DNA from: an uncultured delta proteobacterium
GTDB taxonomy: Bacteria; Desulfobacterota; Deferrimicrobia; Deferrimicrobiales; Deferrimicrobiaceae
NCBI GenBank assembly: GCA_963760885.1
Contig: CAVXEY010000007.1
Location: 136,883 to 200,882, forward strand
Length of the DNA: 64,000 bases
Reading direction: 5' to 3'
The notes under the pieces are model-generated. The model was not told the origin of the DNA, made no database searches, and was given only the letters and a program-made list of their open reading frames with translations. This document shows positions 1 through 24,473 of this stretch, in pieces. Numbering within the stretch: the first letter of the stretch is position 1; each line of letters begins with the position of its first letter. The translations under genes and the position numbers were made by a program.

Positions 1-6
1 CCATCC

Positions 7-1668
7 GTGCCTGACGAACTCTTCGGCAAGTTCCTCACGCTCGGCTACATTGCTCCCGATGACCTGAAGGAGATGATGGAGCGTTCCTCGGCCCTCGGGA
101 TTCCGCTGGCGGAGGCGTCCCTCCTCGCGGACCGTCTGCACCCGGACGCGCGCGCATGGATTCTCTCGGAGTCGCTCGGGATCCCGTTTCTCGAGGTCGA
201 GCCCGACTCCATTTCCCTCGATCTCGCCCCTCTGTTTCCCGAAGCGCTGGCCCGCGAGAACCGGATCGTCCCGATCGCCCGCGAAGGAAACCGGGTGACG
301 GTGGCGGTGACCGACCCGTTTCACCAGAGGACATTCGCGGTTCTCGAGGAGATGACCGGGCTTACCCTTCGAATGGTGGTGTGCCCCGGGCGGACGATCG
401 GCGGGATCCTTGCACGCTTTTACCCCGACCCGTCCGGCCTCGAGCCGCTCGACCTGGGCGAGGGCTCGATTTCCAGGGAGGAGGCCGAGGAGTGGCTCTC
501 GGAGGGAGGGAAGAAGCGGGTTTGCGGGCAGGTCCTGCTCCACGCGGCGTCCCGCCGGATGTCGGGCATCCGGATGTTCCCCGTCGGCCGGGACGTGGTG
601 ATCGAGGGACGCTCGGAGGAGAAAACCGTTCGCCTGCTCTCCTTCCCCCTCCGGTTCCGGAAACCTCTCTTCGACGCCTTCCTGGAACTTGCGGGCGTCC
701 CGAGCGGTTCGGACCTTCCCCCGGAGACGGTCTTCCACATCGAGTCCGGGACCGAGGTCGTCGCCCTCCAGGCGAGTTTCCTGAGAGGGCTCTCCGGGCC
801 CGAGGTGATCATAAAGATCCTCCCCGACCAGAAGGCGGGGATCTCGCTCGAGTCCGTCGGCTTCAACCCGAGCCAGCTTGATATCACCGAAAAGGTTCTG
901 CGCAAGGGAAACGGGCTCTTCCTCGTGTCGTCCCCCGGGCCCGAGGGGGTCCCCACCACCCTGTTCGCCATGCTCCGCGAGGTGTACCGGCCCGGACTTC
1001 GCGCCATCACCGTCGAAGAGCGCCACCGGTTCCGGAACGAGGGGTATATCCAGCTCGACCGGAGGCAGGCGGAGGACCGGTATTCCGGCGACTGGTCCCT
1101 CCTGGCGGAGTCGCTCGAACCCGACATCCTGATGATCGAGCACCTTCCCGATCCGGCGGCCCTCGCCGAGCTGCTTCACCTCGCGCAAGGCGGTCCCATC
1201 GTGCTGTGCGGCATCCGCAGGCCAAACTTCGACCGGGTGCTTCGCACGCTGCTGACCCTCGAGGTGGACCCGTTCATCCTGGCGCACGTCATGCGGCTCG
1301 TCATGCACCAGCGGCTGGTGAAGATGCTCTGCATGGAATGCCGCCGGCCGGTCCCTGCGAGGCCCTCCTTGCGGATGGTGGGGGAGCGGTACCGCGGCGA
1401 GCTGGAGCGGATCGTGGCGGATGCCTCGTTCTACCTTCCTTCCGGGTGCCCGAAGTGCGGCGGGACGGGCTATTCGGGCCGAATGGCGCTCATCGAGCTG
1501 ATCCCCTTCACGCCGGGGGTGCAGAACATCGTTTCGTCGGAAGGTACGCTCGAAGAAAAGCTGTCGCGGCTGATGGAGGAGGATCTGTACTCCGCCGCGC
1601 AATCGGTGCAGGAGATGCTCAAGAGCGGGTTGGTTACCTACGAGGACGTCGCTCCGTTCTTCCGTTGA
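7..1668 (+). CDS. GspE/PilB-family protein with degenerate ATPase motifs (T2SSE_N/MshEN-like N-domain; C-terminal CxxC...CxxC zinc motif). The 5' end may be cut by the window edge.
   Basis: N-terminal GSPII_E_N-like region. Walker A position reads SSPGPEGVPTTL instead of GPTGSGKTTTL. The Asp/His-box equivalents read TVEERH, ILMIEHLPD and CGIRRPN. The C-terminus has CMEC...CPKCGG as in GspE/PilB. Confidence 0.7.
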   Translation: MPDELFGKFLTLGYIAPDDLKEMMERSSALGIPLAEASLLADRLHPDARAWILSESLGIPFLEVEPDSISLDLAPLFPEALARENRIVPIAREGNRVTVAVTDPFHQRTFAVLEEMTGLTLRMVVCPGRTIGGILARFYPDPSGLEPLDLGEGSISREEAEEWLSEGGKKRVCGQVLLHAASRRMSGIRMFPVGRDVVIEGRSEEKTVRLLSFPLRFRKPLFDAFLELAGVPSGSDLPPETVFHIESGTEVVALQASFLRGLSGPEVIIKILPDQKAGISLESVGFNPSQLDITEKVLRKGNGLFLVSSPGPEGVPTTLFAMLREVYRPGLRAITVEERHRFRNEGYIQLDRRQAEDRYSGDWSLLAESLEPDILMIEHLPDPAALAELLHLAQGGPIVLCGIRRPNFDRVLRTLLTLEVDPFILAHVMRLVMHQRLVKMLCMECRRPVPARPSLRMVGERYRGELERIVADASFYLPSGCPKCGGTGYSGRMALIELIPFTPGVQNIVSSEGTLEEKLSRLMEEDLYSAAQSVQEMLKSGLVTYEDVAPFFR

Positions 1669-1730
1669 AATGCGGTCGGAACGGAGTACGGTGGAGCTCG
1701 GGCATACAAACGGATCGCCGAGGGGGTGCC

Positions 1731-3521
1731 ATGAAGGAGACGACGCTTCACCGGATGTTCCTGAACCGGATCGCCGAGGGGGGAGACTCGGTCCGGTACA
1801 TGGTCCCGGGCGATCAAGGCTACACGCCGGTGACGTACCGGCAGGTCGGTGAAGCGTCGCGGGAGATCGGTCTCGGGCTGATGGCGCTCGGCCTTTCGCG
1901 GGGGGACCGCGTGGCGATCCTGTCGACGACGCGCCTGGAGTGGTGCCTTGCGGACATCGGGTCGATCCTCGGGGGATTCGTCACGGTGCCGATCTACCCC
2001 TCGAACCTCCCCGACCAGGTGGAATATATCCTGGCCCACTCGCGCGCGCGGGTCGTATTCGTCGAGGACGAGCAGCAGTACAACAAGGTCGCAGGGGTCC
2101 GCTCCCGACTGCCTCATCTCTCGAGCGTCGTGATGATGACCGGCGGCGGGGGGAAGGAGGGCGATTCGACCCTGCCCGCTCTGCGCGAGCGCGGGCAGGC
2201 GCACGGTTCCGGGAACCCCGGGGCCCTCGAGGCGCGCGCGGAGGAGATCCTCCCCACGGATGACCTCACGATCATCTACACCTCCGGCACCACCGGCCCT
2301 CCGAAAGGGGTCGTGACGCGCCACAGCAACTACGCCTTCAACGTGACCTCGGCGCTGGAGGCGGTCAACGTTCCCCGGGGATCGATGTTCCTCCAGTTTC
2401 TCCCCCTGGCGCACTCCCTCGGGCGTCTGGAGCACTTCCTCGCCTTCGACGCGATGGCCGTCTCCTCCTTCGCCCGTTCCCTCCAGACGGTCGCGGAGGA
2501 CCTCGCGGCGGTCCGTCCGGAGATCATGGTGAGCGTGCCCCGGCTCTACGAGAAGTTCTACGCCCGCGTGCTGGCGAAGGTCGAGGAGGACGGGGGGCTG
2601 AAGAAGGCGATCTTCGAGTGGGCCCTCGGCGTCGGCCGCGAGGCGTCGCGGTGCCGCCAGCAGGGCGGAGAGCCGCAAGGGTTCCTCGCCGTGAAAAACG
2701 GGATCGCGGACCGACTGGTCTTCCGGAAGATCCGGGCGCGGATGGGCGGAAGGCTGCGCTTCTTCATCTCGGGGGGGGCGCCCCTGTCCCGGGAGATCGC
2801 CGAGTTCCTGCACGCCATCGGCGTTCTCATCCTCGAGGGATACGGGCTCACGGAGACCTCCACGGTCACGACGGTCAACCGCCTTGAGCGGTACAAGTTC
2901 GGCACCGTGGGGAAGGCGCTCCCGGGCACCGAGATCCGGATCGCCGTGGACGGCGAGATCCTCGTGCGGGGTCCGCACCTGTTCCGCGAGTATTTCAACG
3001 ACCCCGCCGCCACACGGGAGGCGATCGAACCGGACGGCTGGTTCCACACGGGGGACATCGGTGCCCTCGACGAGGAGGGGTTTCTTCGCATCACCGACCG
3101 GAAGAAGGACATCATCGTTACCTCGGGGGGGAAGAACATCGCCCCCCAGAACCTGGAGAATCTCCTCAAGAACGACCGGTACATCAGCCAGGCGTTCGTG
3201 TACGGCGACCGGAAGAAGTACCTGACCGCCCTCATCACGCTCGTTCCCGAGGAGATCGTCGCCTGGGCGGCCAAACAGGGGATCCCGGATCAAAGCATCA
3301 AGGCGTTGTCGAAGAACCCCGAGGTGCTGCAGTTGATTCGCGAGCGGGTCGACGAGGTCAACCGGGGTCTGGCCTCCTTCGAGCAGGTGAAGAAAATCGC
3401 GGTGCTGGAATCGGACTTCTCCCAGGAAACCGGAGAACTGACGCCCACGCTGAAGGTGCGCCGCAAGGTGGTGGTCGAGATGTACGGACGGATTCTCGAC
3501 GATCTCTACGGGAAGGATTGA
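1731..3521 (+). CDS. fadD: long-chain-fatty-acid--CoA ligase (AMP-dependent synthetase)
   Basis: AMP-binding motif IIYTSGTTGPPKGVV. Typical FadD-like length (596 aa). Start MKETTLHRM preceded by a GGAGG-like RBS. Confidence 0.85.
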   Translation: MKETTLHRMFLNRIAEGGDSVRYMVPGDQGYTPVTYRQVGEASREIGLGLMALGLSRGDRVAILSTTRLEWCLADIGSILGGFVTVPIYPSNLPDQVEYILAHSRARVVFVEDEQQYNKVAGVRSRLPHLSSVVMMTGGGGKEGDSTLPALRERGQAHGSGNPGALEARAEEILPTDDLTIIYTSGTTGPPKGVVTRHSNYAFNVTSALEAVNVPRGSMFLQFLPLAHSLGRLEHFLAFDAMAVSSFARSLQTVAEDLAAVRPEIMVSVPRLYEKFYARVLAKVEEDGGLKKAIFEWALGVGREASRCRQQGGEPQGFLAVKNGIADRLVFRKIRARMGGRLRFFISGGAPLSREIAEFLHAIGVLILEGYGLTETSTVTTVNRLERYKFGTVGKALPGTEIRIAVDGEILVRGPHLFREYFNDPAATREAIEPDGWFHTGDIGALDEEGFLRITDRKKDIIVTSGGKNIAPQNLENLLKNDRYISQAFVYGDRKKYLTALITLVPEEIVAWAAKQGIPDQSIKALSKNPEVLQLIRERVDEVNRGLASFEQVKKIAVLESDFSQETGELTPTLKVRRKVVVEMYGRILDDLYGKD

Positions 3522-3530
3522 CCGGGAACG

Positions 3531-4316
3531 TTGCCCACCACGATCTACGAGCTCAACCGGATGCCGGAGGTGGAGCGTTCCGCGCTATTGTCGCTCCTCG
3601 TCCCGAGGCGCCTCTTTTCAATGTTTTCGATCGACCCCCGGGACTTCCGGAATTCCTCCGGATTCGAGTGCGTGAAGTTCACCTGCCCGGATGAGATGCC
3701 GTTTTTCCAGATCGACGTACGGAGGGATCCCGCGGACAAGGACGCTGCGTACTTTCTCGACGTGTCGACCTCGGCGTTCGGGCAGATGGAGATCTCCTTC
3801 ATCATCGTCAATGATCCCGAGGGGGAGCGGTTCGGGATCGACCGGGACGAAAACGGTCACGAGACGTACTTCGGGACCGCGCGGCGAAACGTGCCGGAGG
3901 AACTCCGGGCGATGGAGGCCGGCCTGGCGCCGGGGCAGGTGCGCAGGGGCTTGCGAATGATGTCGGAGATGGTGGAGTGCTGGGACGCTTTCTTCGACCG
4001 GATGGGGTACAAGTTCTACTTTCTCGAGCCGCTGGGGTACAACAGCGCGATCCTCTATGAGCACGCGGGGTTCCAGTACTTGAAAGGAAAGGAAAATATG
4101 CTTTGGATCGACAGGGAGTTCCGCCCCGGGGGGCTGTTGCGCGAGCGGCTCGACGGGAGCACGCCGTTCCGGCGACCTTCTCTCGCCCTGACCGTTCGGG
4201 GGCGGGCGTGGGCGATTCACGACGGGATCCTCGACGAGCCGTGGGAAAGCCCAAAGATGTACAAAACCGTCGGCGTGCAGTCGGGCGTCCACACATTCAC
4301 AGGGGAGAAATATTGA
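3531..4316 (+). CDS. hypothetical protein
   Basis: 261-aa ORF in the sense frame, tightly spaced after fadD. No motif recognised. Confidence 0.45.
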   Translation: MPTTIYELNRMPEVERSALLSLLVPRRLFSMFSIDPRDFRNSSGFECVKFTCPDEMPFFQIDVRRDPADKDAAYFLDVSTSAFGQMEISFIIVNDPEGERFGIDRDENGHETYFGTARRNVPEELRAMEAGLAPGQVRRGLRMMSEMVECWDAFFDRMGYKFYFLEPLGYNSAILYEHAGFQYLKGKENMLWIDREFRPGGLLRERLDGSTPFRRPSLALTVRGRAWAIHDGILDEPWESPKMYKTVGVQSGVHTFTGEKY

Positions 4317-6304
4317 TCCCGTCGCGTCTTCTTCCCGTCGCGATTCTTCTGGCCGCGTTGCTGCCCGGGGCGGCGGCCCAGGATCGGGAGGATCCCCCCC
4401 GGATCTTCTTCGAGAAGAAGGTCTATTCCGATACGGCGGGCGGGAGACAGAGTTTCTTCGAGACGTACATCGTGGAGAAGGGGGACACGCTCTGGAAGAT
4501 CCTCCAGCGGAACGAGCCCCTCACACCGGACCGGTACTCGGAGCGCCTCAAGGAATTCCGGCGCGCCAATCCGAAGGTCGCCGACCCATCGCGGATCGCG
4601 CCGGGCCAGAAACTTCTCGTTCCCTCCGGCGCAAAACCGAAGACGATCGCCAACGGCAAGACGATCGATTACACGGTGGAGCGGGGGGACACCCTTTTGA
4701 AGATCCTGTCCGCCCGGGGCGTTCCGGCCCCACAGCGGAAGAAGTTCCTCGACGCGATTCAGGAGATCAATACATCGGTCACGGATGTGGACCGGATCCT
4801 CGCGGGGAATACCCTCCTTCTTCCGACGGAAAAGTACTTCACGCGAGAGGTTCCGCCTGCGGAAACGGAAAAGACGATGGCCGCCGCGGAACCGGCGAAG
4901 GCGGCGATCGTCCCGGAACCGTCGGAGCCCGCCGCTCCGGTGAAACGGGCCGCGTCGCCGATAGCCCCGGAGCCGGAGAAGGTCGCACCCCCGGAGGTCG
5001 CGCCGTCGGTCCTCCCGCGCCCGGCGGAGGGCATGCCATCCCCGGAGGTTCCCCCTGCGCAGGCGTTGACCCGCGACATCGCCGCCGGCCCGGGCACGGA
5101 CGCCCTGGCCGCCGGAAAGCCGGAGGCGGAGCTGCTGGTTCCCAAGCCGGTTCCCCCGGACGCTTCGGTCGTGGAGACGGGGAAGGCGAAGCCCGCGCGG
5201 GAGGTCGTCACCCCACCGGTGCGGTCTCCATACCGGGGGCTCCTGTCGGACCTCTTCCTGGCGATCGGAGAGAGATGGGTCGATCACGGAACGATGTATC
5301 TTCCTCTCCCTTCCGGGGGGGACGTGTTGCTGCAGTTGTCCGATTTCCCCGTCGTGCGATTCTCCGGGGGAGCGGAGGCGCTCATCGATTTCCGCGGAGG
5401 CATCCCACCCCGCATTGCGGATGCGATCTCCTCCCAATGGAAATCGCTCCGGGTGGTCTCTCTCGCCGACGCGGGCGGGGCGGGGGATCGGATCGACCGG
5501 ATTCTGCGCGTGTCGGGATACTATTCCGTGAAAGAGGGGATCTCCAACCCCGTGGTCGTGGGCGAGACCGTTTCGGTCACGCTCCCGGCGCGATGGGTCA
5601 TCCAGCGGACCGAGGACAGCCTCCTTTTGGGAGACCTCATCCTGCTGAAAGAGGTCCCGGAAAGGCCCGATCCCGAACTTCTCGCCGTCCTTCGGTACGC
5701 CCGTCGCGTCGGGCTCCGCGTTCTTCCCTACGCCGACGATCCGAACGCGATGGAAGGGTTCCTCGTGGGCATCCCGGAGGATGCGTCGGAGGAAGGGATC
5801 CCGGTGGCCCTCGCGGTGCCGAAAACGGGCGGGCTCCCGGCGGTCGACTTCGGTCTCTCCCTCCTCGGGATCCCCGCCAGGACCGGGGAGCGTCTGCGCG
5901 TGGGTGGGGCGGAAGACGCCTTCCGGCTCGTGGTATCGCCCGAGCGGTTCTTCGAGGCAGGCGGGAAGAAGTACGTCGTCGATACCGGGAAGATGTCCAC
6001 AGCGATCCGCTCGATCCTCCGGGAATCGGGGTACGCCGTCTTCATGGCGGGGAAGGACGTTTCCGGCAGGGAGATTTTCCTGCGGCTGATGAAGGCGGCG
6101 GGGATCGTGCCGGAAGAGCGAAAGGAGTATCTGCTGACGGGGGGCGCGAAGGCGGGATATGAGATTCGGGTCACGGGCACGTTCCTTTCCGTGCCAGGTC
6201 CCTCGGGCGGGGCGGGACGAAGGATCGTGCTGATTCGCAGGAAGATTCACTCGGCCACTCGGGCGTTGCTCGGAGACATGGGTGTGGAAATCGTCGAGTG
6301 GTAG
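4313..6304 (+). CDS. secreted LysM-domain protein (two LysM repeats, Pro-rich linker, C-terminal domain of unknown function)
   Basis: TTG start overlapping the upstream stop, with RBS AGGGGAGA. Signal peptide MIPSRLLPVAILLAALLPGAAAQ. LysM signatures YIVEKGDTLWKIL and YTVERGDTLLKIL. A PEPxxP-rich spacer follows. Confidence 0.7.
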   Translation: MIPSRLLPVAILLAALLPGAAAQDREDPPRIFFEKKVYSDTAGGRQSFFETYIVEKGDTLWKILQRNEPLTPDRYSERLKEFRRANPKVADPSRIAPGQKLLVPSGAKPKTIANGKTIDYTVERGDTLLKILSARGVPAPQRKKFLDAIQEINTSVTDVDRILAGNTLLLPTEKYFTREVPPAETEKTMAAAEPAKAAIVPEPSEPAAPVKRAASPIAPEPEKVAPPEVAPSVLPRPAEGMPSPEVPPAQALTRDIAAGPGTDALAAGKPEAELLVPKPVPPDASVVETGKAKPAREVVTPPVRSPYRGLLSDLFLAIGERWVDHGTMYLPLPSGGDVLLQLSDFPVVRFSGGAEALIDFRGGIPPRIADAISSQWKSLRVVSLADAGGAGDRIDRILRVSGYYSVKEGISNPVVVGETVSVTLPARWVIQRTEDSLLLGDLILLKEVPERPDPELLAVLRYARRVGLRVLPYADDPNAMEGFLVGIPEDASEEGIPVALAVPKTGGLPAVDFGLSLLGIPARTGERLRVGGAEDAFRLVVSPERFFEAGGKKYVVDTGKMSTAIRSILRESGYAVFMAGKDVSGREIFLRLMKAAGIVPEERKEYLLTGGAKAGYEIRVTGTFLSVPGPSGGAGRRIVLIRRKIHSATRALLGDMGVEIVEW

Positions 6305-6355: not shown

Positions 6356-6949
6356 ATGAGGAGTGCGACGAACCGAAACTCGGCGCGCCGATTGGATGAC
6401 GCGTCGACTCTGACCGGGCTTCTGGAGTTTCGCCCCAGGACGGCGGTCGTGCTCGTTTTTCTTACCCTCATGGTCGCCGTCGTCGGCTGGCGGATCGCCC
6501 GGGACACGGGAGTCCGCCGGGTCAACGACTTTGCGCGCGAAGCGATCACGCTGTTCGATGCCGCTCCGTCGACGGGTACCGCAACCGCCCCGCCGGATGC
6601 CGACGAGGTGGAAAAGAGGTTCCGGTCCTTCGCGGGTGATTCCATCGGGATCCCGCGGGACGACCCCGACTTCGTTCCCGTCGAGGTCCGCAAGGTGGTG
6701 TTTGCGAACCATCCGGCCGTCTCGCTGCGGTTCCGCTACGCGGGGGAGGGGTATCTGCTCGTGGTGTCCGCCCGGGACCGGCTCCTCGGGACTCCAACCG
6801 TCGCGGCGTTCCCCGAGAGGTCGTTCGTCTCCGGGGAGCGGGACGGCAGGTCGTTCGTCCTGTGGGAGCGGGAGGAGGCGACGTGCATCGTTGTTTCGGA
6901 GGGCGATGTGACCCAGGCGTTCGAACTGGTTCGCCGCCTGTTCACCTGA
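6356..6949 (+). CDS. hypothetical membrane-anchored protein
   Basis: 197-aa ORF with a single N-terminal TM helix (VVLVFLTLMVAVVGW). No family recognised. Confidence 0.45.
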   Translation: MRSATNRNSARRLDDASTLTGLLEFRPRTAVVLVFLTLMVAVVGWRIARDTGVRRVNDFAREAITLFDAAPSTGTATAPPDADEVEKRFRSFAGDSIGIPRDDPDFVPVEVRKVVFANHPAVSLRFRYAGEGYLLVVSARDRLLGTPTVAAFPERSFVSGERDGRSFVLWEREEATCIVVSEGDVTQAFELVRRLFT

Positions 6950-7723: not shown

Positions 7724-7942
7724 GTGAGACCAGAAGTCGAGAAAGTGCTGGAAAGCATTCGCCCCGCCCTCCAGGCCGATGGGGGAGACGTGGAACTCGT
7801 CGACATCGACGGTGGCGTGGTGAAGGTGCGCCTCATGGGCGCATGCGGCGGCTGCCCCATGGCCACCATGACGTTGAAGGGCGGCATCGAGGCGGCCCTC
7901 AAGGAGCGGATTCCGGCCGTCGAACGGGTGGAGTCCGTATAA
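7724..7942 (+). CDS. NifU-like (Nfu C-terminal domain) Fe-S assembly protein
   Basis: The 72-aa ORF has the [16 protein letters not shown] signature of Nfu/NifU C-terminal domains. GTG start. Confidence 0.8.
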
Positions 7943-7970
7943 CCCACTAACTTATTCAAAGGGAGGTGTC

Positions 7971-8141
7971 ATGGCGTACAAAATCACGGAGGAGTGCATC
8001 GCCTGCGGCGCATGCGCGCCGGAGTGCCCCGTCCAGTGCATCGCGGAGGGGGACCCGATCTACACGATCGACGCAAGCATATGCACGGATTGCGCGGCGT
8101 GCGCGGGGGTGTGCCCTACCGCGGCGTGCGTCCCGGCGTAA
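7971..8141 (+). CDS. 2x[4Fe-4S] ferredoxin (56 aa)
   Basis: MAYKITEECIACGACAPECPVQCI...CTDCAACAGVCPTAAC. Two CxxCxxCxxxCP motifs. RBS GGGAGG 6 nt upstream. Confidence 0.8.
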   Translation: MAYKITEECIACGACAPECPVQCIAEGDPIYTIDASICTDCAACAGVCPTAACVPA

Positions 8142-13674: not shown

Positions 13675-14560
13675 ACCGCCGCACGCCGCTCGGCAAAGGG
13701 GCGCTGAATCGTATCAGGGGCGCACAACAAGAATGGAACAGGAAGACTCGTCCCGATCGATTGCCGCAATGGCGATCCGCATCTTGTTTTATTTTGGCAT
13801 TTCCTCCATGGAGGGAAGGTGTGATGACAAGCGAATTGCGGATCCGGATCCCGGTTGCCGGATGCGAAAACGATGGCGGTTCGCCCCTCACCCTGCATAT
13901 CTGCGCAGGGCAGCACCCTCGGGGGAGGTTCCAGAAATAACGTATATATTTCGAATAATTTCATTAATATAGCGACTCAACCGCGTGCTCTCGACATTTT
14001 CGGATTCTCTTTGACCCTCGGAACGGGGGCGGGGAAAAACGGGTGATGAGATATTCGATGGCCTGTTGAGTTTTACAACACAAATTTTCGTTACGAATGC
14101 AATACGCATTTCCGCTGATTTCGGGGTGCAAAAATATTCCGCATCCAAAGATTTCCCGCCATCGAATCATTCGTGTGGCAATCCACCAGATAATTCATTA
14201 AATATCCGCATGTTGAACGGTGTCATGGATCCGGAATCCACCTCTGTGGCAATGAATGCGGTCGCCATGCGGCTGGAAGGGGGAATGTAGAAAAATTATA
14301 GTACTGTAGAATATTTCTATTATAGTATTCTTAAAAATATCGGTAGTAGCGGCATCATCTTCCACTTCATCCCATAAAATGATATTATTTCAAAAATAAA
14401 ATAATGTATCGGTGAAAATTATTTCGTAGTAAGCAGAATCGTCATAATTCCTTAATTTTGTCAATATCATTCAAGTCTTATATTGTAACAATAAAACATT
14501 ATTTTAATGTATTCGTATAATGGAAATAAATTATTTGTATGTCGTTTTGCTGAATTTGTA

Positions 14561-14589
14561 TTGACAGATACTGGAATTGTGCGTAGTTT
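14561..14589 (+). promoter_or_regulatory. sigma70-like promoter candidate inside the AT-rich island (TTGACA-17 nt-TAGTTT)
   Basis: Perfect -35 hexamer TTGACA, 17-nt spacer and TAGTTT -10, about 160 nt upstream of the hdrA-like gene. Confidence 0.4.
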
Positions 14590-14601
14590 GAAAATTATGA
14601 T

Positions 14602-14640
14602 GGTCAGGCCAATTCATGATGAAGGTCAGTCCAATTCATG
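14602..14640 (+). repeat. 17-nt direct repeat (GGTCAGGCCAATTCATG / GGTCAGTCCAATTCATG) with 22-nt periodicity
   Basis: Two copies with one mismatch, lying directly downstream of the candidate -10. Candidate operator or activator site. Confidence 0.5.
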
Positions 14641-14747
14641 CGGGAAAATCCCGGGAACTTCCTTCCATTACTTCGGAGCGTGACCGCGGACCACGGTATA
14701 GCGACTGTCAACCCCGATCAGAGCGGTACCGAACGAGGTAAAGCGCG

Positions 14748-16568
14748 ATGGTCAACGAATTGAGAACGGGCGTCTACATCTGCCAGGCAGGGATCGGCGG
14801 CGCCAACGACGTCGACCTGAAAAAAGTCGTCCGATACGCAGAAAGTCTCCCCAATGTCATAAAGGTTGGAATTCTGGGCGAGAATCCGAGACTCGATCCC
14901 GTTGTCCTCGCCCAGGAGATCCGGAACGACGAAATCGAGCGGATCGTCGTTGCGGGAGACTCTTCGGGGTACTTCAAGCCGGCCTTCACGTGCGCGATGG
15001 TTCAGGCGGGAGGCGATCCGGGCAACGTACTGGTTGCATCGTTCCTCGGAAACGGCGCCTCCGGACTGAACTCGACCGAACGTGCCAAGGGCGTAGTGGC
15101 CTGCTCCGTCTACGGCGTTCCCTTCGGACTGGCGGCGGTTCCGCAGTACGCGGCGGTTCACCCCGATACGCTCGTGATCGGCGGGGGCGTTGGCGGCATT
15201 CAGGCCGCCCTGGAAATCGCCGATGCCGGGAAGAAGGTCTTCCTCGTCGAGAAAAGCGGCACCATCGGCGGCCACATGGCGATGTTCGACAAGACCTTCC
15301 CGACCCTCGACTGCGCCGCCTGCATCCTGACCCCCAAGATGGTCGCTGTCGGTCAGCACAAGATGATCGACCTGATGACGTACTCCGAGGTCCAGGAGGT
15401 GACCGGATCGCCGGGGGCCTACAAGGTCAAGGTCCGAAGGTTCGCACGCCGCGTCGACGAAATCGCCTGCGTGGCCTGCAACGCCTGCTCCGAGGTCTGC
15501 CCGACCAGCGTTCCGAGCGAATTCGACGCCGGGATCAGCATGAGAAAGGCGATCTACGTTCCCTTCCCCCAGGCGGTGCCCAACTCTTTCCTGGTCGACG
15601 GCGATTCATGCCTCTACGTGCAGAGCGGCGGAAAGAAGTGCGGGGCGTGCGTCAAGAAGTGCGCGAAGGAAGCCATCCACCTCGACGACGAGGACCAGAT
15701 CGTCGAACTGACGGTCGGCAACATCGTCGTCGCTACCGGCTACGCCCCCTTCGACGCCAGGAGGATCGAGCGATACGGGTACGGCGTTTATCCCAACGTC
15801 CTCACGTCCCTCGAATTCGAGCGCCTGACGAACGCATCGGGCCCGACCGGCGGGAACATCGTGATGAAGGCCCTGCGGCACAACAAGCGCAAGAAGGTCG
15901 ACGAGTGGGTTTTCTCTACCGAGAATCCCAAACCGAAAAGCGTGGCGATCATCCACTGCATCGGCTCGCGCGACGAGAATTACAACTCGTACTGCTCGCG
16001 GGTCTGCTGCATGTACTCGCTGAAGTTCGCCCATCTGGTCCGGGAAAAGCTGCCCGACGCCGCCTGCTACGAGTTCTACATCGACATGCGCGCGTACGGG
16101 AAGAACTACGAGGAGTTCTTCCAGCGGATCGGGGAGGAAGGAGTCTTCCTTGTACGCGGCCGCACGGGCAAGGTCGTCGAGCAGAGCGGAAAGATGAGTA
16201 TCAAGGGCGAGGACATCGTTGGAGACAAGGTGCTCGAGTTCCAGGTCGACATGGTGATCCTCTCCGTAGGTTTGGAGGCGTCGGCCGATGCGGAGCGCCT
16301 CTCGGGACTTCTCGGAATCGCGCGCGACAAGGACGGCTGGTTCGCGGAACGGGACTACAACGCCGATCCGACCGGCACGGAACGCGGGGGAATCTTCGTC
16401 GCCGGCGTTTGTCAGGGGCCGAAGGACATCCCCGACACCGTATCACAGGCCTCGGCGGCGGCGGCCCGGGTCCTCAAGAGCATCCTCAGCGGGCGAATTC
16501 AGGAGAGTCGGTCCGGGTTGACGCTTGCCGATATCGAATCGCGCATCCGTCGTCAGGCGCACGCATAA
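14748..16568 (+). CDS. hdrA: HdrA-like FAD/FeS flavoprotein (heterodisulfide reductase subunit A family) with a cysteine-poor N-terminal domain
   Basis: FAD fold LVIGGGVGGIQAALEIADAGKKVFLVEKSG. HdrA signature CSRVCC. Inserted ferredoxin CVACNACSEVCP. The N-domain reads YICQAGIGG where canonical HdrA has CxCG. Confidence 0.85.
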   Translation: MVNELRTGVYICQAGIGGANDVDLKKVVRYAESLPNVIKVGILGENPRLDPVVLAQEIRNDEIERIVVAGDSSGYFKPAFTCAMVQAGGDPGNVLVASFLGNGASGLNSTERAKGVVACSVYGVPFGLAAVPQYAAVHPDTLVIGGGVGGIQAALEIADAGKKVFLVEKSGTIGGHMAMFDKTFPTLDCAACILTPKMVAVGQHKMIDLMTYSEVQEVTGSPGAYKVKVRRFARRVDEIACVACNACSEVCPTSVPSEFDAGISMRKAIYVPFPQAVPNSFLVDGDSCLYVQSGGKKCGACVKKCAKEAIHLDDEDQIVELTVGNIVVATGYAPFDARRIERYGYGVYPNVLTSLEFERLTNASGPTGGNIVMKALRHNKRKKVDEWVFSTENPKPKSVAIIHCIGSRDENYNSYCSRVCCMYSLKFAHLVREKLPDAACYEFYIDMRAYGKNYEEFFQRIGEEGVFLVRGRTGKVVEQSGKMSIKGEDIVGDKVLEFQVDMVILSVGLEASADAERLSGLLGIARDKDGWFAERDYNADPTGTERGGIFVAGVCQGPKDIPDTVSQASAAAARVLKSILSGRIQESRSGLTLADIESRIRRQAHA

Positions 16569-16584
16569 CACGGAGGACATGGAC

Positions 16585-17760
16585 ATGACCGTCCGTTCGA
16601 ACCCCAAGCTGGTCGAGGAAGTGAGGCGCTACGGCGCAGAGGACGTGCTCAAGTGCTACCACTGCGGCAACTGCAGCGCGGTCTGTCCGTTCTCGAAAGA
16701 GCCCTTCATCTTTCCACGGAAGTCCATGCGGTATCTCCAGATGGGACTTACGGAGAAGCTCAAGGGCAACCTTGAGCCGTGGCTGTGCTACTACTGCGGC
16801 GAGTGCTCGGAGCAGTGCCCGCGCGAGGCGGAGCCGGGCGAGACGATGATGAGCATGCGCCGCTGGCTCACCTCGCGGTACGACTTCACGGGGATCTCCC
16901 GGCTGTTCTACCAGTCCTGGAAGGCCGAACTGGCGGCGATCCTCCTCATGGCGGCGCTGACGGGGTTGGGATTCACCCTGTTCGGGTTGAAATACGGGGG
17001 AGGGGATATCCGGGTCTACGCGGGTCCCAACGCCTTCCTGCCCAGCGAAAGCGTGCACATCTTTGACTGGATCATGGGCGGGGTCCTCGGGGGACTGCTC
17101 ATGATCAATTGCGCCCGGATGTGGTGGTTCACGACGGGGAAGAGCGATACGCTGGAAATCTCCCTCTTCTCCTACATAAAGCACGCGCTTCTGCTGCCAT
17201 GGCATTTCATGACCCAGAAGCGATACAGCGAATGCGGCAAGAAAGGGCCGTGGCTGGTCCACTTCATCCTGGTGTGGAGTTATCTCACGCTTCTGATCCT
17301 GATCATGTTCTTCCTGAACCGGATGCATCACGGGCCGGAGACGCTCTGGGACGTCCACGCCTTCGGATACCTGGCGACTGCCGGGCTTCTCGGAACGACC
17401 TTCTACGCGTTGCGAGGCCGCTGGAAAAAAACCGAAACCCATTACAAGCACTCCCATGAAACCGACATGATCTTCCTGTACCTGCTGCTGTACGTCGGCG
17501 GGACAGGGATCCTGCAGAACATCCTTTACCGGGCCTTCGGCCTCGAAACCGCGGCCAACATCGTCTACATCGTGCACATGATGGGCGTCGTGCCGATGCT
17601 GACCCTCGAGGTTCCCTTCAGCAAGTGGGGCCACCTTGCCTACCGGCCCCTCGCGATGTACCTCTCCCGTCTTCATGTCGATGCGATAACGGCGAGGGAG
17701 GGCGCTTTAGAGCGGGCAAAGATCCCCGCGATGATGGCGCAGAAGCAGATGACCGCGTAG
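16585..17760 (+). CDS. QmoC-like protein: HdrC-type di-[4Fe-4S] domain fused to a multi-TM cytochrome-b-like (HdrE/NarI-like) membrane domain
   Basis: CYHCGNCSAVCP and CYYCGECSEQCP motifs, then about 6 TM helices with conserved His pairs. RBS GGAGGA 7 nt upstream of the ATG at 16585. Alternative ATG at 16579. Confidence 0.8.
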   Translation: MTVRSNPKLVEEVRRYGAEDVLKCYHCGNCSAVCPFSKEPFIFPRKSMRYLQMGLTEKLKGNLEPWLCYYCGECSEQCPREAEPGETMMSMRRWLTSRYDFTGISRLFYQSWKAELAAILLMAALTGLGFTLFGLKYGGGDIRVYAGPNAFLPSESVHIFDWIMGGVLGGLLMINCARMWWFTTGKSDTLEISLFSYIKHALLLPWHFMTQKRYSECGKKGPWLVHFILVWSYLTLLILIMFFLNRMHHGPETLWDVHAFGYLATAGLLGTTFYALRGRWKKTETHYKHSHETDMIFLYLLLYVGGTGILQNILYRAFGLETAANIVYIVHMMGVVPMLTLEVPFSKWGHLAYRPLAMYLSRLHVDAITAREGALERAKIPAMMAQKQMTA

Positions 17761-17772
17761 CCGGAGGAACGC

Positions 17773-19503
17773 ATGAAAAAAGAAGCGAGGATCGGCGTAT
17801 ACGTCTGCAATTGCGGAACCAACATCGCCAAGATGGTCGACTGCGAGGCGGTGTCCGGATTCGCATCCACGCAGCCCGGCGTGATCGCCTGCAAGTCGTA
17901 CAAGTACATGTGTTCCAACCCGGGCCAGGAAATGATCGTCAACGACATCCAGAACCTGAAACTCAACCGTGTCGTCGTCGCGGCGTGCAGTCCCCGCATG
18001 CACGAGCCGACCTTCCGCACCACTCTCGACAAGGCGGGGATCAACCCGTTCTTCCTCGAGATGGCCAACATCCGAGAGCAGTGCAGCTGGGTTCATGAAA
18101 ACCGCGAAACGGCCACGGACAAGGCGAAGGCATTGACCTGCGCGGCGATCCGCCGCGTGAAGCATCACGAACCGTTCAACAGGCAGTCCGTCCCGATGCA
18201 TCCCGCCACGCTGGTGATCGGCGGGGGCATCGCCGGCCTGACGGCCGCCCTCGAGCTCGCGGACGCCGATCAACCGGTGTACCTGGTCGAACGGGAGGAT
18301 CACCTCGGCGGCAACGTGGCCCGGATCGACCTGACGGCGCCTTATCTTTATTCCGCGCGCGACATGCTCAACGAGCGGATGACGCGCGTCCTCCGCCATC
18401 CCCGGATCACCGTCCTCCTCAACTCGGAGGTCGGGTCGATCTCGGGGTACGTGGGGAACTTCAAGGCCGTTATGAAGGGCGCGATTCCGGGCCAGGAGAT
18501 CGACGTGGGAAGCATCGTCGTCTGCACCGGCTTCCAGGAATTCGATGCGTCACGGGTTGCGCGCTTCGGGTACGGCCGGTTGCCCGACGTCATCACCTCG
18601 TTCGAGCTGGAACGGATGCTGCGCGAGGGGCGTGTCCTGACCCGGGGCGGCCACGAACCGAAGTACGTCACGCTGATCAACTGCGTCGGCAGCCGCAACG
18701 AGGAATACAACCATTACTGTTCGCGGGTCTGCTGCATGACCGCTCTGAAGTACGGGCACGAGATCCGGTCCGCGGTGCCGAATGTCTACATCCACAACCT
18801 CTACACCGACATGAACGCGTTCGGGAAGGGGTGCGAGGATTTCTACCTCCACAGCGCCGAGAGAAAAGCGATTTTCATGATGTACGGCCAGAACAACCCC
18901 CCTACGGTCGTTAATGCGAGGCCCGGGGACGGTTGCGGGTTGCTGGTTCGCGTGCATGAAATGCTCTCCGGGGAACACGTGGAGATCCCCGCCGACCTGG
19001 TCGTCCTGATGGTCGGCATGGAGGCCCGTTCCGACTCCGCACAGGTCGCGCGCCTGGTCAACATCAGCCGCGACAAGGACGGGTGGTTCATCGAAAGCCA
19101 TCCCAAGCTCGATCCGGTAGCCACCACGACCGACGGCATCTTCATCGCCGGGGTGTGCCAGGCACCGAAGGATATCCCCGAAACGGTCGCCCAGGCGCGG
19201 GCTGCCGTAGCCCGGATCCTGGGCAAAATAAGCAACGGAGAGATCGAAGTGGCGCCGGTGTTCGCCGAGATCGACGAGAACTTCTGTTCCGGCTGTCGCA
19301 TGTGCAACGAGCTGTGCCCCTACGCGGCGATCGAGTACAGCGTGGAAAAGAAGCGCAGTCACGTCATCAGTGTAATGTGCAAGGCGTGCGGAACCTGCGT
19401 CGCGGCCTGCCCGTCGGGCGCAATCAAGGGTCGACACTTCACGGATCGGGAAATCTGCGAAGAGATCGAGGGGGTGCTGGAATGGGATTCGAGCCGCGCA
19501 TAG
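17773..19503 (+). CDS. hdrA: HdrA (heterodisulfide reductase subunit A-like flavoprotein), canonical
   Basis: N-domain VYVCNCGTNI...C. FAD fold LVIGGGIAGLTAALELA. CSRVCCM. C-terminal ferredoxin CSGCRMCNELCP / CKACGTCVAACP. Confidence 0.85.
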   Translation: MKKEARIGVYVCNCGTNIAKMVDCEAVSGFASTQPGVIACKSYKYMCSNPGQEMIVNDIQNLKLNRVVVAACSPRMHEPTFRTTLDKAGINPFFLEMANIREQCSWVHENRETATDKAKALTCAAIRRVKHHEPFNRQSVPMHPATLVIGGGIAGLTAALELADADQPVYLVEREDHLGGNVARIDLTAPYLYSARDMLNERMTRVLRHPRITVLLNSEVGSISGYVGNFKAVMKGAIPGQEIDVGSIVVCTGFQEFDASRVARFGYGRLPDVITSFELERMLREGRVLTRGGHEPKYVTLINCVGSRNEEYNHYCSRVCCMTALKYGHEIRSAVPNVYIHNLYTDMNAFGKGCEDFYLHSAERKAIFMMYGQNNPPTVVNARPGDGCGLLVRVHEMLSGEHVEIPADLVVLMVGMEARSDSAQVARLVNISRDKDGWFIESHPKLDPVATTTDGIFIAGVCQAPKDIPETVAQARAAVARILGKISNGEIEVAPVFAEIDENFCSGCRMCNELCPYAAIEYSVEKKRSHVISVMCKACGTCVAACPSGAIKGRHFTDREICEEIEGVLEWDSSRA

Positions 19504-19919: not shown

Positions 19920-20883
19920 GTGGATAAGAAGAAACTACAGGTTGCACTTTACTGGGGTGCGGGATGCGGGGGCTGTGACGTGGCGGTCCTCGATACCGAC
20001 GAATTCATTCTCGAGCTTGCCGAAGTGGCCGACATCCGGTTGTGGCCCATCGCGGTGGACGCCAAGTATAAGGACGTCGAGGCGATGGCTCGACGGCGAG
20101 CTCGATCTGACGATTTTCAACGGGGCCGTCCGGAACAGCGAAAACGAGCACATCGCGAAGCTGTTGCGACGCAAGAGCAAGCTGGTGGTCGCTTTCGGTT
20201 CCTGCGCCCACCTGGGCGGGATCCCGGCGTTGGCGAACCAGACAACGAAAGAGGAGATCTTCGAGCGGGCGTACGGGAAGAATCCGTCGATCGAAGAGGG
20301 GAACACCACCGTCCCCCAGGCACATACCCGGGTGAACGGTGGCGAGCTCACGATCCCCATGTTCTACAGGCGGGTCTACAAGTTGGACGACGTGGTGGAC
20401 GTGGACCTGTATGTCCCCGGCTGCCCACCGGCCCCCGAACAGGTCAAGGCGGTGCTCAAGGCGGTGGCGAGCAACCTGCTTCCGCCGAAGGGCAGCGTGG
20501 TGGGCGCTTCGGAACGCGCGGTCTGCGACGATTGCCTGAGGAAGAAGGAAGAAAAGAAGGTCAAACGATTCTACCGGCCGTGGCAGATCATCCAGGATCC
20601 CGAACGGTGCCTGATGGAACAGGGCATCCTTTGCGCCGGATCGGCGACCCGCTCCGGGTGCGGTGTGCGCTGCCCGAACAGCAACATGCCGTGCCGCGGC
20701 TGTTACGGCCCGCTGCCCAATGTCATGGACCAGGGAGCGAAGCTTCTGAGCGCGGTGGCTTCGATCATCGACAGCAAGGATCCCGAGGAGATCGACCGGA
20801 TCCTTGACGGGATTCAGGATTTCACCGGATACGCCTACCGTTTCGGGATGGCGGGATCCCTATTGCAGAGGAGAACCGGCTGA
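19920..20883 (+). CDS. mvhG: [NiFe]-hydrogenase small subunit (MvhG-like), apparently frameshifted near 20085-20095
   Basis: N-terminus MDKKKLQVALYWGAGCGGCDVAV...KDVEAM is in frame 0. The rest (DGELDLTIFNGAVRNSENE...GSCAHLGGIP...CPPAPEQ...CRGCYGP) is in frame +1. One extra nt at ~20089. Confidence 0.7.
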
Positions 20884-22349
20884 TGGCCAGAACGATCAGC
20901 ATTGATCCCATTACGCGTCTGGAAGGGCACGGGAAGATAGAGATCTTCCTCAACGACGACGGGAGCGTGAAGGATTGCCACTTCCAGATCCCCGAACTGC
21001 GCGGTTTCGAGCGTTTCGTGGTCGGCAGGCCGGTCGAAGAACTGCCGCGCATCGTCACCCGGATCTGCGGCGTTTGCCCCGCCAGCCACCATCTGGCCGG
21101 TGCGAAAGCCGTCGACGGATGCTTCGGCGGAGAATTGCCTCCGCTGGCATTCAAACTTCGTGACATGTACTACCAGGCGCATTTCATCCACAGCCACATC
21201 GCCCACTTCTTCGCGCTGGCGGCGCCGGATTTCGTCTGCGGGCCGCAATCCGACCCGGCCCTGCGCAATATCCTCGGCGTCGTCGCCAAGGTCGGCCCGG
21301 AAATCGGCGGCAAGGTAATCAAGTCGCGGTCACAGGCCCAGAGGATCCAGCAGATCATCGGCGGCAGGAGCACGCACGTGGTGTGGGCCATTCCCGGCGG
21401 TGTGTCCAAGGGTCTCAAGGCTGAAGAGCTCGCGGAAATCAAACCGATGGTCGACGAGCTCTACGATTTCACCCTCTTCTCGATAAAGCTGTTCAAGGAC
21501 GTCGTGCTGGGCAACCCGGAATACCTGGACCTGATCCTCAACGGGCCGTACAACCTCGATATACAGAACATGGGGCTGGTGGACCGGAACAATGCGCCCA
21601 ACTTCTACGACGGCAAGGTCAGGGTGGTCGATTTCAAGGGCGAGGAAATCTGCAAATATTCGTCCAAGGAATATGCCGACAACGTGGCCGAGCACGTGGA
21701 ACCGTGGTCCTATCTGAAGTTCCCTTACCTGAAGCAGCGGGGGTGGAACGGGTTCGCCGAGGGGATCGATTCCAGCATCTACATGGCGACGCCGCTTTCG
21801 CGGCTCAACGTGGCCGACAGGATGGCGACGCCGAAGGCCCAGGAGGCGTTCGAGGAGATGTTCCAGACCTTGAAACAGAAGCCGTGCCGCGCGTTGATGG
21901 CGGCCCACTGGGCCAGGTTGGTGGAAATGGTGCAGAACGCCGAGACGCTGAAGATGTACTGCGCCGACCCGGAGATCACCGGCGACCGGTACCGGGTCGT
22001 CCCGCAAGGGATCACGGGGGAAGGCGTAGGGATCGTGGAGGCGATGCGGGGCACCCTGACGCATCACTACACTTGCGACAAGAACGGGATCTGTACCAGC
22101 GCGAACCTGATCGTCGGCACCACGAACAACAATGCGGCGATCCACATGGTTACCCGGAAGGCGGCCTCCGGACTCATCAAGCCGGGAGTCGAGCCGACCG
22201 AGGGGGTCCTGAATATGGTCGAAATGGCGTTCCGGACGTTCGATCCGTGCTTCAGCTGCGCGACGCACAGCCTTCCCGGGCAGATGCCGCTCCAGGTTAA
22301 GATCTTCAAGGGAGGCGGGCTTTATCGCGAATTCCAGCGCTGCTGTTAG
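20883..22349 (+). CDS. mvhA: [NiFe]-hydrogenase large subunit (MvhA-like, group 3)
   Basis: N-terminal RICGVCPASH (L1) and C-terminal DPCFSCATH (L2) Ni-Fe ligand motifs. The C-terminal extension is consistent with protease maturation. Confidence 0.85.
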   Translation: MARTISIDPITRLEGHGKIEIFLNDDGSVKDCHFQIPELRGFERFVVGRPVEELPRIVTRICGVCPASHHLAGAKAVDGCFGGELPPLAFKLRDMYYQAHFIHSHIAHFFALAAPDFVCGPQSDPALRNILGVVAKVGPEIGGKVIKSRSQAQRIQQIIGGRSTHVVWAIPGGVSKGLKAEELAEIKPMVDELYDFTLFSIKLFKDVVLGNPEYLDLILNGPYNLDIQNMGLVDRNNAPNFYDGKVRVVDFKGEEICKYSSKEYADNVAEHVEPWSYLKFPYLKQRGWNGFAEGIDSSIYMATPLSRLNVADRMATPKAQEAFEEMFQTLKQKPCRALMAAHWARLVEMVQNAETLKMYCADPEITGDRYRVVPQGITGEGVGIVEAMRGTLTHHYTCDKNGICTSANLIVGTTNNNAAIHMVTRKAASGLIKPGVEPTEGVLNMVEMAFRTFDPCFSCATHSLPGQMPLQVKIFKGGGLYREFQRCC

Positions 22350-24377: not shown

Positions 24378-24473
24378 GGAAGCGGATGGGGCGCTGGTGG
24401 CCCCCCCGGACTTCAAATCCGGTCGGGAGGCGGAAACGTCTCCGGTGGGTTCGATTCCCTCACGCTTCCGCCA
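24378..24473 (+). tRNA. selC: tRNA-Sec-like (anticodon UCA, long variable arm, ~96 nt)
   Basis: GGAAGCGG...CCGGACTTCAAATCCGG...(long extra arm)...GGGTTCGATTCCC...CGCTTCCGCCA. The anticodon loop CTTCAAA gives a TCA anticodon. The acceptor stem is 7 bp plus a G.A pair, which is not ideal for a bacterial Sec tRNA. Confidence 0.7.

Follow-up and report, generated by a model that had tools for sequence, protein, structure and literature searches.

Is a protein that is built like the PilB and GspE ATPases still a motor when the residues that would make it one have been replaced? The question is raised by the gene at the left edge of a 64 kb stretch of DNA from an uncultured member of the Deferrimicrobiaceae (64,000 nucleotides; contig CAVXEY010000007.1, positions 136,883 to 200,882 of the forward strand), which is called the window throughout. 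An earlier note on this DNA had taken the product for a hydrolysis-dead paralogue rather than a motor. That reading holds: the catalytic losses are conserved among homologues, the gene is subject to purifying selection, the fold is kept, and a separate PilB is encoded in the lineage. What the gene encodes is a pseudo-ATPase of the PilB/GspE clade that is maintained by selection and keeps its fold. The best explanation, to which we assign a probability of about 0.7, is that this paralogue is a non-catalytic binding protein specified by the accessory first gene of an operon.

The pseudo-ATPase gene and its integrity

1..1668, + strand: PilB/GspE-family pseudo-ATPase gene, 556 amino acids (aa) at full length (open reading frame, Pfam, collinearity with the P0001 contig, AlphaFold2 and Foldseek)

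The open reading frame that runs from 7 to 1668 on the + strand (553 codons in the window) is real, as had been proposed, but nucleotide (nt) 7 is not the start of the gene. The closest database protein, P0001, is 99% identical, has 556 aa, and is encoded on a collinear contig of 347 kb. Comparison with that contig places the true start at a GTG that lies 3 nt before the first letter of the window and follows GGGAGGG, which is read as the ribosome-binding site. This makes the GTG at nt 7 the fourth codon, and the start codon is the only part of the gene that lies outside the window. Truncation or an assembly artefact, either of which would have refuted the earlier reading, is excluded: the gene is near-identical to that of P0001, and it is intact and collinear both with P0001 and with more than 120 other clusters of homologues.

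The domains follow one another as in a secretion ATPase: an MshEN N-terminal domain (N1), an N2 domain, and a RecA-like C-terminal domain that carries a Cys4 zinc motif. Pfam recognizes the MshEN domain (PF05157) at aa 57-142 with E 3e-17 and 62.8 bits against a cut-off of 23.1, so that the MshEN-like domain recognized earlier from the sequence alone stands above the gathering score. The T2SSE domain (PF00437) spans aa 236-548 (E 1.8e-26; 93.2 bits, gathering cut-off 24.9). Among NCBIfam models the PilB model TIGR02538 is the best match, at 143.0 bits against an equivalog cut-off of 675.65; the GspE model TIGR02533 scores 120.2 bits against 630.25. Public records name the family "type IV pilus assembly protein PilB".

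Loss of the catalytic residues

769..816, + strand: arginine-finger positions R271 and R286 (231-sequence alignment)
931..960, + strand: Walker A remnant SPGPEGVPTT, canonical GPTGSGKTT (three alignments)
1012..1044, + strand: Asp-box equivalent VEERHRFRNEG, a conserved family-specific motif (three alignments)
1117..1152, + strand: Walker B equivalent EPDILMIEHLPD (both MAFFT alignments)
1189..1230, + strand: His-box equivalent GGPIVLCGIRRPNF (both MAFFT alignments)

The residues opposite the catalytic motifs were read from three alignments: phmmer alignments to the solved PilB, PilF and GspE chains, and two MAFFT alignments, one of 32 and the other of 231 sequences. The counts below refer to the larger one, in which 125 sequences belong to the family and 106 are canonical PilB-like proteins. 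Motif numbering and residue roles follow PilB of Geobacter metallireducens (McCallum et al. 2017, PMC5424180). All three alignments place the same residues of the window protein opposite the catalytic motifs.

The P-loop lysine, present in 106/106 canonical proteins, is valine in the window protein and Val or Ile in 118/125 family members. The Mg-binding Thr or Ser, likewise found in every canonical protein (106/106), is proline in the window protein and alanine in 115/125 members, and the fourth P-loop glycine (102/106 canonical) has become proline here and in 114 of the 125. In the Asp box the sequence EDPVE is changed to EERHR (nt 1012-1032), and the Mg-ligand E357, a glutamate in 103/106 canonical proteins, is replaced by arginine in the window protein as in 122/125 of its family. 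The GE of Walker B reads EH (nt 1138-1143): the atypical Walker B glycine (101/106 canonical) is a glutamate here and in 122/125 members, while the catalytic glutamate E395 (103/106 canonical) is a histidine here and in 117/125.

The same pattern extends to the residues of the His box and of the subunit interface. TGH...LHT is altered to GGP...IRR (nt 1189-1221), with H413 (His in 98/106 canonical proteins) changed to proline in the window protein and to threonine in 92/125 members, and H420 (His in 100/106) changed to arginine in the window protein and in 123/125 members. At the arginine fingers, R271 (Arg in 102/106) corresponds to Gln255 (nt 769-771; Gln in 113/125) and R286 (Arg in 103/106) to Lys270 (nt 814-816; Lys in 123/125). 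The inter-chain contact R455 is a lysine in the window protein and Lys or Arg in 122/125 family members.

Misalignment was considered as the source of these differences and rejected, since the phmmer and MAFFT results are consistent with one another and with the fold match, and the protein has no other P-loop. The pattern GxxxxGK[ST] was sought over the whole length of the family members and found nowhere, so the catalytic residues are not merely displaced. The motif-by-motif comparison with GspE and PilB that had been proposed as a check thus finds every catalytic residue replaced and none misaligned. The earlier observation of a Walker A that reads GPEGVPTT and has lost its lysine is confirmed in all three alignments, with valine in place of the lysine. 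The Asp box, Walker B and His box are non-consensus, as had also been remarked, and their replacements recur among the 125 homologues. Because the substitutions are conserved across the family, they represent a fixed alternative state rather than random decay. With these residues the pseudo-ATPase is unable to use the catalytic apparatus of PilB and GspE.

Fold, zinc motif and selection

1330..1458, + strand: tetracysteine zinc sub-domain, CMEC...CPKC (both MAFFT alignments; the most conserved stretch of the family)

The loss of catalytic residues is not accompanied by loss of the fold. An AlphaFold2 model of the monomer, built from a 67-sequence alignment, has a mean predicted local distance difference test score (pLDDT) of 85.9. 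Foldseek matches it to GspE, PilB and PilF structures with E values from 1e-31 to 1e-28; the top match is GspE 4pht (E 1.8e-31), and the PilF/PilB entries 5oiu, 5tsh and 5zfr follow at E ~1e-30 with template modelling (TM) scores of 0.65-0.72 on the target. The C-terminal tetracysteine motif, noticed at the first inspection, is indeed present; its ligands are C442, C445, C481 and C484 in the window protein. The first two cysteines are found in 125/125 family members and the last two in 124/125, the exception being one gapped row.

Across five orthologues at 76-90% identity, the ratio of nonsynonymous to synonymous substitution (dN/dS; Nei-Gojobori) is 0.24-0.29, compared with 0.15-0.23 for the neighbouring gene for a FadD-like ligase and 0.25-0.39 for a nearby gene for a LysM protein. 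The pseudo-ATPase gene is under purifying selection. It is neither a pseudogene nor an assembly error, because the replacement residues are conserved and the dN/dS is low.

The MshEN domain and c-di-GMP

7..432, + strand: MshEN-type (N1) domain with both cyclic di-GMP (c-di-GMP) motifs degenerate (Pfam PF05157, alignment, motif test)

Two tandem 24-residue motifs for c-di-GMP binding by MshEN domains were defined by Wang et al. 2016 (PMC5013675), in the strict form RLGxx(L/V/I)(L/V/I)xxG(L/V/I)(L/V/I)xxxxLxxxLxxQ and the relaxed search form [RKPN]hGxxhhxx[GAS]hhxxxxhxxxhxx[QNKRYWST]. Neither form is matched by any of the 113 full-length family members, and the relaxed form is matched by 34/106 canonical proteins. 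In the window protein, motif 1 agrees at 9/11 relaxed positions and retains the hydrophobic scaffold, but RLG has become ELF; the change removes the stacking arginine (now Glu) and the glycine whose backbone contacts guanine (now Phe). Motif 2 agrees at 7/11 positions.

In one branch of the family the domain has been dispensed with altogether. Residues ~13-138, the whole MshEN domain, are deleted in frame in loci L026, L047 and L070/71. The rest of the protein is intact, and three or four assemblies share one junction, ..PDDLxxx(F/Y)FPExSG... A single event in a sub-lineage is probably responsible. The sites are as follows.

L026 ~7940-8060: MshEN deletion
L047 ~3800-3920: MshEN deletion
L070/L071: MshEN deletion

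A set of short homologues (438-473 aa) was also considered as MshEN-less variants and rejected; these are contig-end fragments.

The suggestion that the protein is a c-di-GMP-binding adaptor therefore does not survive the motif test that had been proposed for it: even the relaxed motif is absent from all 113 members, and a sub-lineage has lost the domain. A Pfam match above threshold and the largely preserved scaffold of motif 1 may be cited in favour of a c-di-GMP receptor or adaptor acting through MshEN, but with ELF in place of RLG, a second motif still further from the pattern, and the in-frame loss of the domain, such a role is highly improbable.

Distribution and the pilus genes of the lineage

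An exhaustive HMMER search of 1.84 billion representative proteins yielded 17,919 relatives, of which the pseudo-ATPase family forms only a handful. Identity to the window protein is 66-99% in more than 120 protein clusters, and a scan of one genome per species located the family in 22 genomes, all of them metagenome-assembled genomes (MAGs) of the Deferrimicrobia type. Named close homologues all come from Candidatus Deferrimicrobium, Deferrimicrobiaceae or "Deltaproteobacteria" MAGs. Deep members of the family, at 56%, 43%, 29% and 27% identity, have the same catalytic losses and share the gene order and the upstream element described below. Identity to canonical PilB is ~20-27%. Candidatus Deferrimicrobia (MBNT15) is the only group in which the family occurs.

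Ca. Deferrimicrobium borealis SHF-111, of MBNT15, encodes type IV pili and no flagella (PMC9386147). Its supplementary gene list places PilB next to PilT and includes two further PilT/PilU-family ATPases, PilM, PilN, PilP, PilQ and minor pilins, but neither GspE nor anything of a type II secretion system (PMC9386147). SHF-111 thus possesses a separate and complete type IVa pilus gene set with a PilB of its own, and for this reason the pseudo-ATPase is an extra paralogue rather than the pilus motor of the lineage.

The upstream element and the proposed operon

1722..3521, + strand: FadD-like acyl-coenzyme A (CoA) ligase of the adenosine monophosphate (AMP)-forming type (Pfam AMP-binding and AMP-binding_C_3)
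3531..4316, + strand: 261-aa orphan protein (10-nt gap after the FadD-like gene; synteny; no family match)
4313..6304, + strand: exported LysM protein (signal-like N-terminus, LysM, Pro-rich linker, 334-aa C-terminal domain)
6356..6949, + strand: 197-aa single-pass membrane protein (hydrophobic segment at aa 30-48), the last of four downstream genes
L001 9938-9991, also in L002-L086: promoter-like element upstream of the pseudo-ATPase gene

The order pseudo-ATPase, FadD-like ligase, 261-aa protein, LysM protein and 197-aa protein is kept in every related locus, the deepest included. The FadD-like gene starts after a gap of 54 nt from the pseudo-ATPase gene and keeps its position in all loci; the pseudo-ATPase gene is immediately upstream of it in 33/34 informative metagenome loci. 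The stop codon of the 261-aa gene overlaps the start of the LysM gene by 4 nt (TTGA).

A promoter-like element, ATTTTACTTTC-N8-TTTTAATAAAGTTGAAAATAAA, spans ~45 nt upstream of the pseudo-ATPase start, just to the left of the window. It is AT-rich and is invariant across 12 loci whose proteins are 62-90% identical; the deepest loci have a related form. Each of 46 loci has a single copy of the exact 21-mer TTTAATAAAGTTGAAAATAAA, invariably at this position immediately upstream of the pseudo-ATPase gene, and the window itself has none. The elements are arranged in the order TTTAC(T/A), 17 nt, TAAAGT, then GGGAGGG and the GTG start. We read this as a putative sigma-70-type promoter that agrees with 8/12 consensus positions, a score under the threshold of the scanning tool. 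An Rfam search of the upstream element returned nothing, and promoter and terminator scans of the window gave counts at chance level.

The gene has been lost from some loci. In L090 (2530-3525) it is cleanly absent, and the element now stands before the cytochrome gene. In L099/L100 (4940-5200) an internal deletion has left the element, a start-less 53-codon remnant of the C-terminus, and then the FadD-like gene. The rest of the block is retained in these lineages, at least two in number. Persistence of the element before the next gene where the pseudo-ATPase gene has been deleted suggests an operon with the downstream genes. The element probably drives a unit that runs from the pseudo-ATPase gene into those genes, a unit to which the pseudo-ATPase gene itself would be accessory.

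Products of the neighbouring genes

The 261-aa orphan is the most conserved product of the block, with 62-64% identity across the class and ~95 invariant residues among 12 sequences. It has no Pfam, NCBIfam or PDB match, and a metagenome scan retrieved matches in the same lineage only, at 68% identity or above. Over long range the pseudo-ATPase diverges to 27-29% identity, whereas the FadD-like and 261-aa proteins remain at 54-64%.

The 197-aa membrane protein begins with a conserved cytoplasmic tail of 28 residues, eleven of which are invariant (T5, N6, R7, R11, R12, L19, G21, E24, F25, P27 and R28). Such conservation suggests that the tail may be a docking peptide, for which it is a natural candidate, for a cytoplasmic partner. 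NCBIfam and the PDB hold no match to this protein, and its sole Pfam match is at chance level (E 0.26). Sequence and profile searches of the PDB with the 261-aa protein, the 197-aa protein and the C-terminal domain of the LysM protein gave nothing or chance-level matches.

The LysM gene had been described as lying next to the PilB-like gene; it is in fact two genes away, with the FadD-like and 261-aa genes between. Where several LysM domains had been proposed, one is clear (PF01476, 45.9 bits, aa 52-104), and a second is a weak partial match below threshold (18.2 bits, cut-off 20.9). The Pro-rich linker and the large C-terminal domain described at the same time are both found. That domain, of 334 aa (window 5300-6301), is a lineage-restricted orphan with an alpha/beta fold in an AlphaFold2 model (pLDDT 78). 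It has no Pfam, NCBIfam or PDB sequence match, and its model has no significant Foldseek match in the PDB; it comes closest to PrgH, a type III secretion protein, in the periplasmic domains that build the ring (E 0.01, probability 0.25), a resemblance that is not significant and is not evidence.

FimV, to which the LysM protein had been likened, is a peptidoglycan-binding LysM protein associated with pili and secretins. It crosses the membrane once and then continues into a large cytoplasmic part, where the FimV core and C-terminal motifs lie. The likeness consists in an exported N-terminal region with a LysM domain and goes no further. The only hydrophobic segment of the window protein is its signal-like N-terminus, so that it differs from FimV in having neither an internal transmembrane segment nor a cytoplasmic half. 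No FimV match was obtained at E <=0.01 in NCBIfam, a library that we take to contain FimV models, and the lineage-restricted C-terminal domain is a further difference. Together with the intervening genes, these features speak against a FimV-like protein.

In some lineages, though not in the window, a gene for an exported four-haem cytochrome of ~250 aa lies between the pseudo-ATPase and FadD-like genes. The protein has four CXXCH motifs and a beta-rich C-terminal half. Its gene overlaps the stop codon of the pseudo-ATPase gene in L006 and is present in L009, whose pseudo-ATPase is 90% identical to the window protein.

L004 9936-10724: four-haem cytochrome gene
L006 3337-4104: four-haem cytochrome gene
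L007 11708-12457: four-haem cytochrome gene
L009, L018, L028, L029, L070, L075 and L083: further four-haem cytochrome loci

The window does contain a small multihaem cytochrome (Paired_CXXCH_1; 148 aa; 56006-56452, - strand), whose similarity to the haem half of the pseudo-ATPase-linked cytochrome is weak (34% over 119 aa).

No pil or gsp genes were found by Pfam in the window, including 30 further open reading frames, nor, from gene tables, in the 10 kb upstream on the near-identical P0001 contig or in related loci. The upstream inspection that had been proposed as a means of linking the gene to pilus or secretion genes thus gives no such link. The remaining genes of the window serve housekeeping and energy metabolism. 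An anti-phage defence module was considered for the five genes of the block and rejected, as PADLOC matched none of them.

Comparison with known ATPases and with other dead PilB-like proteins

The closest well-characterized relatives are the PilB proteins (G. metallireducens 5TSG/5TSH; Myxococcus xanthus 3JC8). The domain order of N1, N2 and a RecA-like domain with Cys4 is the same, the length is similar (556 versus ~566-568 aa), the TM scores are those given above, and R455 is kept as lysine. The catalytic and nucleotide-sensing residues, by contrast, are all replaced, the PilB model score is 143 bits where 676 are called for, and the gene is not encoded with pilT, pilC or pilMNOPQ; the true PilB of the lineage is separate. 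GspE and EpsE (Vibrio EpsE 1P9R; GspE-GspL 4PHT) share the fold and the zinc tetracysteine and supply the top Foldseek match. One study (PMC5061722) reports the zinc-binding tetracysteine to be essential in EpsE. Here too the catalytic motifs of the pseudo-ATPase are lost, the score falls short (120 bits versus 630), and no gsp genes lie nearby. The N-terminal domain aligns to residues 24-141 of Vibrio cholerae MshE (5HTL), from which the protein differs in having both 24-residue motifs degenerate and a dead ATPase half. By homology the pseudo-ATPase belongs to the PilB/GspE clade; by its residues it is not one of the enzymes of that clade, and neither PilB nor GspE is an appropriate name for it.

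Among the best 150 representative matches, 11 further proteins from outside the family lack a canonical Walker A. They range from a change of lysine to arginine or of some other single residue to the loss of most motifs. The three of these proteins whose gene neighbourhoods were inspected, P0210, P0214 and P0241, are like the pseudo-ATPase in having ~550 aa, MshEN and T2SSE domains and an intact Cys4, and in having lost the Walker A lysine and most motifs. They differ in belonging to separate lineages with other replacement residues, and in gene context: an active PilT is encoded directly downstream of each of them, whereas a cytochrome or FadD-like gene follows the pseudo-ATPase gene. No description of degenerate PilB-like proteins of this type was found in the literature.

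L111 6001-8739: dead PilB-like gene followed by intact PilT
L113 576-3316: dead PilB-like gene followed by intact PilT
L112 158-2279: dead PilB-like gene followed by intact PilT

In L111 a gene for a cyclic nucleotide monophosphate-binding protein follows PilT. Other variants came to light among the relatives. P0129, P0132, P0135 and P0136, of ~1000 aa, are tandem proteins in which a PilB-type ATPase module occurs twice; both copies are complete, have all four motifs (Walker A, Asp box, Walker B, His box) and are apparently active. P0149, another PilB-like protein, has Walker A and the Asp box intact but has lost the catalytic glutamate (GT for GE) and the second histidine of the His box; to judge from these residues it may represent an intermediate state of degeneration.

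Possible functions of the pseudo-ATPase

On the preferred reading, the three-domain fold and the zinc knuckle would have been kept while the residues for Mg-ATP binding, hydrolysis and inter-subunit signalling were exchanged for a fixed set. Such a protein would not act as a motor, and canonical binding of nucleotide or of c-di-GMP would be unlikely. It would work instead by protein-protein contacts made through its N2/C-terminal core and its zinc sub-domain, with the MshEN domain dispensable in one sub-lineage. Its gene would be the first, and an accessory, member of an operon with those for the FadD-like ligase, the 261-aa orphan, the LysM protein and the 197-aa membrane protein. In short, the pseudo-ATPase probably acts by binding other proteins.

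As to the partner, a product of its own operon may be put forward tentatively, and something other than the operon products or the pilus machine is about as likely. The type IVa pilus machine is a possible but doubtful partner, and with it goes an equally doubtful role as a pilus regulator, in which the pseudo-ATPase would join PilB/PilT in mixed rings, or compete for the PilM/PilC platform, and so throttle extension or retraction. Homology to PilB runs throughout the protein and includes the N1 domain, which in GspE binds the platform protein GspL (4pht); R455 is kept as Lys or Arg in nearly all members and arginine finger 2 as Lys; type IVa pilus genes are present as a complete set in the lineage; and the degenerate PilB-like proteins that are encoded directly upstream of an active PilT illustrate that dead copies can join pilus loci. 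Those other lineages are, however, precisely where the present family differs, with no pil gene in the window or in the 10 kb upstream. Mixed rings are made unlikely by the low identity to canonical PilB, the N1 domain can be lost, and the gene stands under a promoter-like element that it has in common with non-pilus genes. It is conceivable, though improbable, that the PilB fold has been repurposed without reference to pili: the rebuilt basic and histidine-containing pocket (the Mg site with Arg, Walker B with Glu-His, the His box with Arg-Arg, finger 2 with Lys) would bind a new anionic ligand, such as an acyl-adenylate or acyl-CoA from the FadD-like ligase or a nucleotide-like signal, and the protein, probably as a ring, would couple that ligand to the envelope module of the operon, that is, to the LysM protein and to the 197-aa membrane protein with its cytoplasmic tail. 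A pilus motor would then have given rise to a sensor or a scaffold.

The same pocket bears on the idea that the protein is still a nucleoside triphosphatase or a nucleotide-binding switch that uses non-canonical residues. The pocket is conserved and has acquired basic side chains (E357 is now Arg, E395 His, H420 Arg and R286 Lys). Also invariant are the sixth P-loop residue, a glycine, the two threonines that follow the loop, and the first glutamate of the Asp box. But the P-loop lysine and the Mg-binding Thr/Ser are gone with no alternative P-loop in their place, an extra proline replaces the fourth P-loop glycine in 114/125 members, the Mg ligand is charge-reversed, and the catalytic glutamate is absent, so that this alternative deserves little credence. 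A gene in decay, functionless and retained through chance or through polar effects within the operon, merits even less. Its loss from at least two lineages (L090, L099/L100), the loss of a domain in another, and divergence faster than that of its neighbours (27-29% versus 54-64% identity) are what decay might produce; a reading frame undamaged in over 120 clusters and in the genomes of 22 species, a dN/dS of 0.24-0.29, near-invariant replacement residues and cysteines, and a confidently predicted fold are not.

Several considerations nevertheless weigh against the preferred reading of a non-catalytic binding protein encoded in an operon. Canonical nucleotide binding is judged unlikely from sequence, and the remodelled pocket, conserved and basic as it is, could bind something. 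Because the gene has been lost in at least two lineages, its product is not essential to the function of its neighbours, which weakens the case for a partner within the operon. Operon status, for its part, is suggested by spacing, the promoter-like element and the absence of intergenic terminators, in a window where terminator counts are those of chance. Synteny across the class could in part reflect general conservation of the genome, since genes upstream of the block are syntenic too.

Significance for annotation

PilB and GspE proteins are regarded as motors and annotated automatically as such, and a family labelled PilB is an annotation trap. The label would inflate the pilus and secretion gene content inferred for MBNT15/Deferrimicrobia, a widespread, uncultured group of predicted iron reducers. 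The literature searched, including a 2024 review of PilB cofactors, contains no description of a catalytically dead PilB/GspE paralogue, an absence there that is not proof. A family fixed across a class, together with at least three other dead lineages beside a live PilT, suggests that pseudo-ATPases are a recurrent and overlooked element of the superfamily. If a partner were found, the protein would exemplify the reuse of a motor scaffold for regulation or assembly.

Other features of the window

Apart from the pseudo-ATPase block, one region of the window stands out in composition. G+C falls to 0.54 at 14001-16000, compared with ~0.65 elsewhere, around a stretch of ~1 kb (13.7-14.7 kb) that has no called open reading frame and lies ahead of a cluster of Hdr-like genes.

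14748-19503: HdrA-like and FlpD-type genes
20883-22349, + strand: NiFeSe-type hydrogenase large-subunit gene
24378-24473, + strand: selenocysteine tRNA (tRNA-Sec) gene, 74 bits, anticodon TCA

The hydrogenase gene is ~2 kb from the tRNA-Sec gene, which is also near the HdrA-like and FlpD-type genes. The proximity of a tRNA-Sec gene to these genes points to probable selenoprotein use in the organism.

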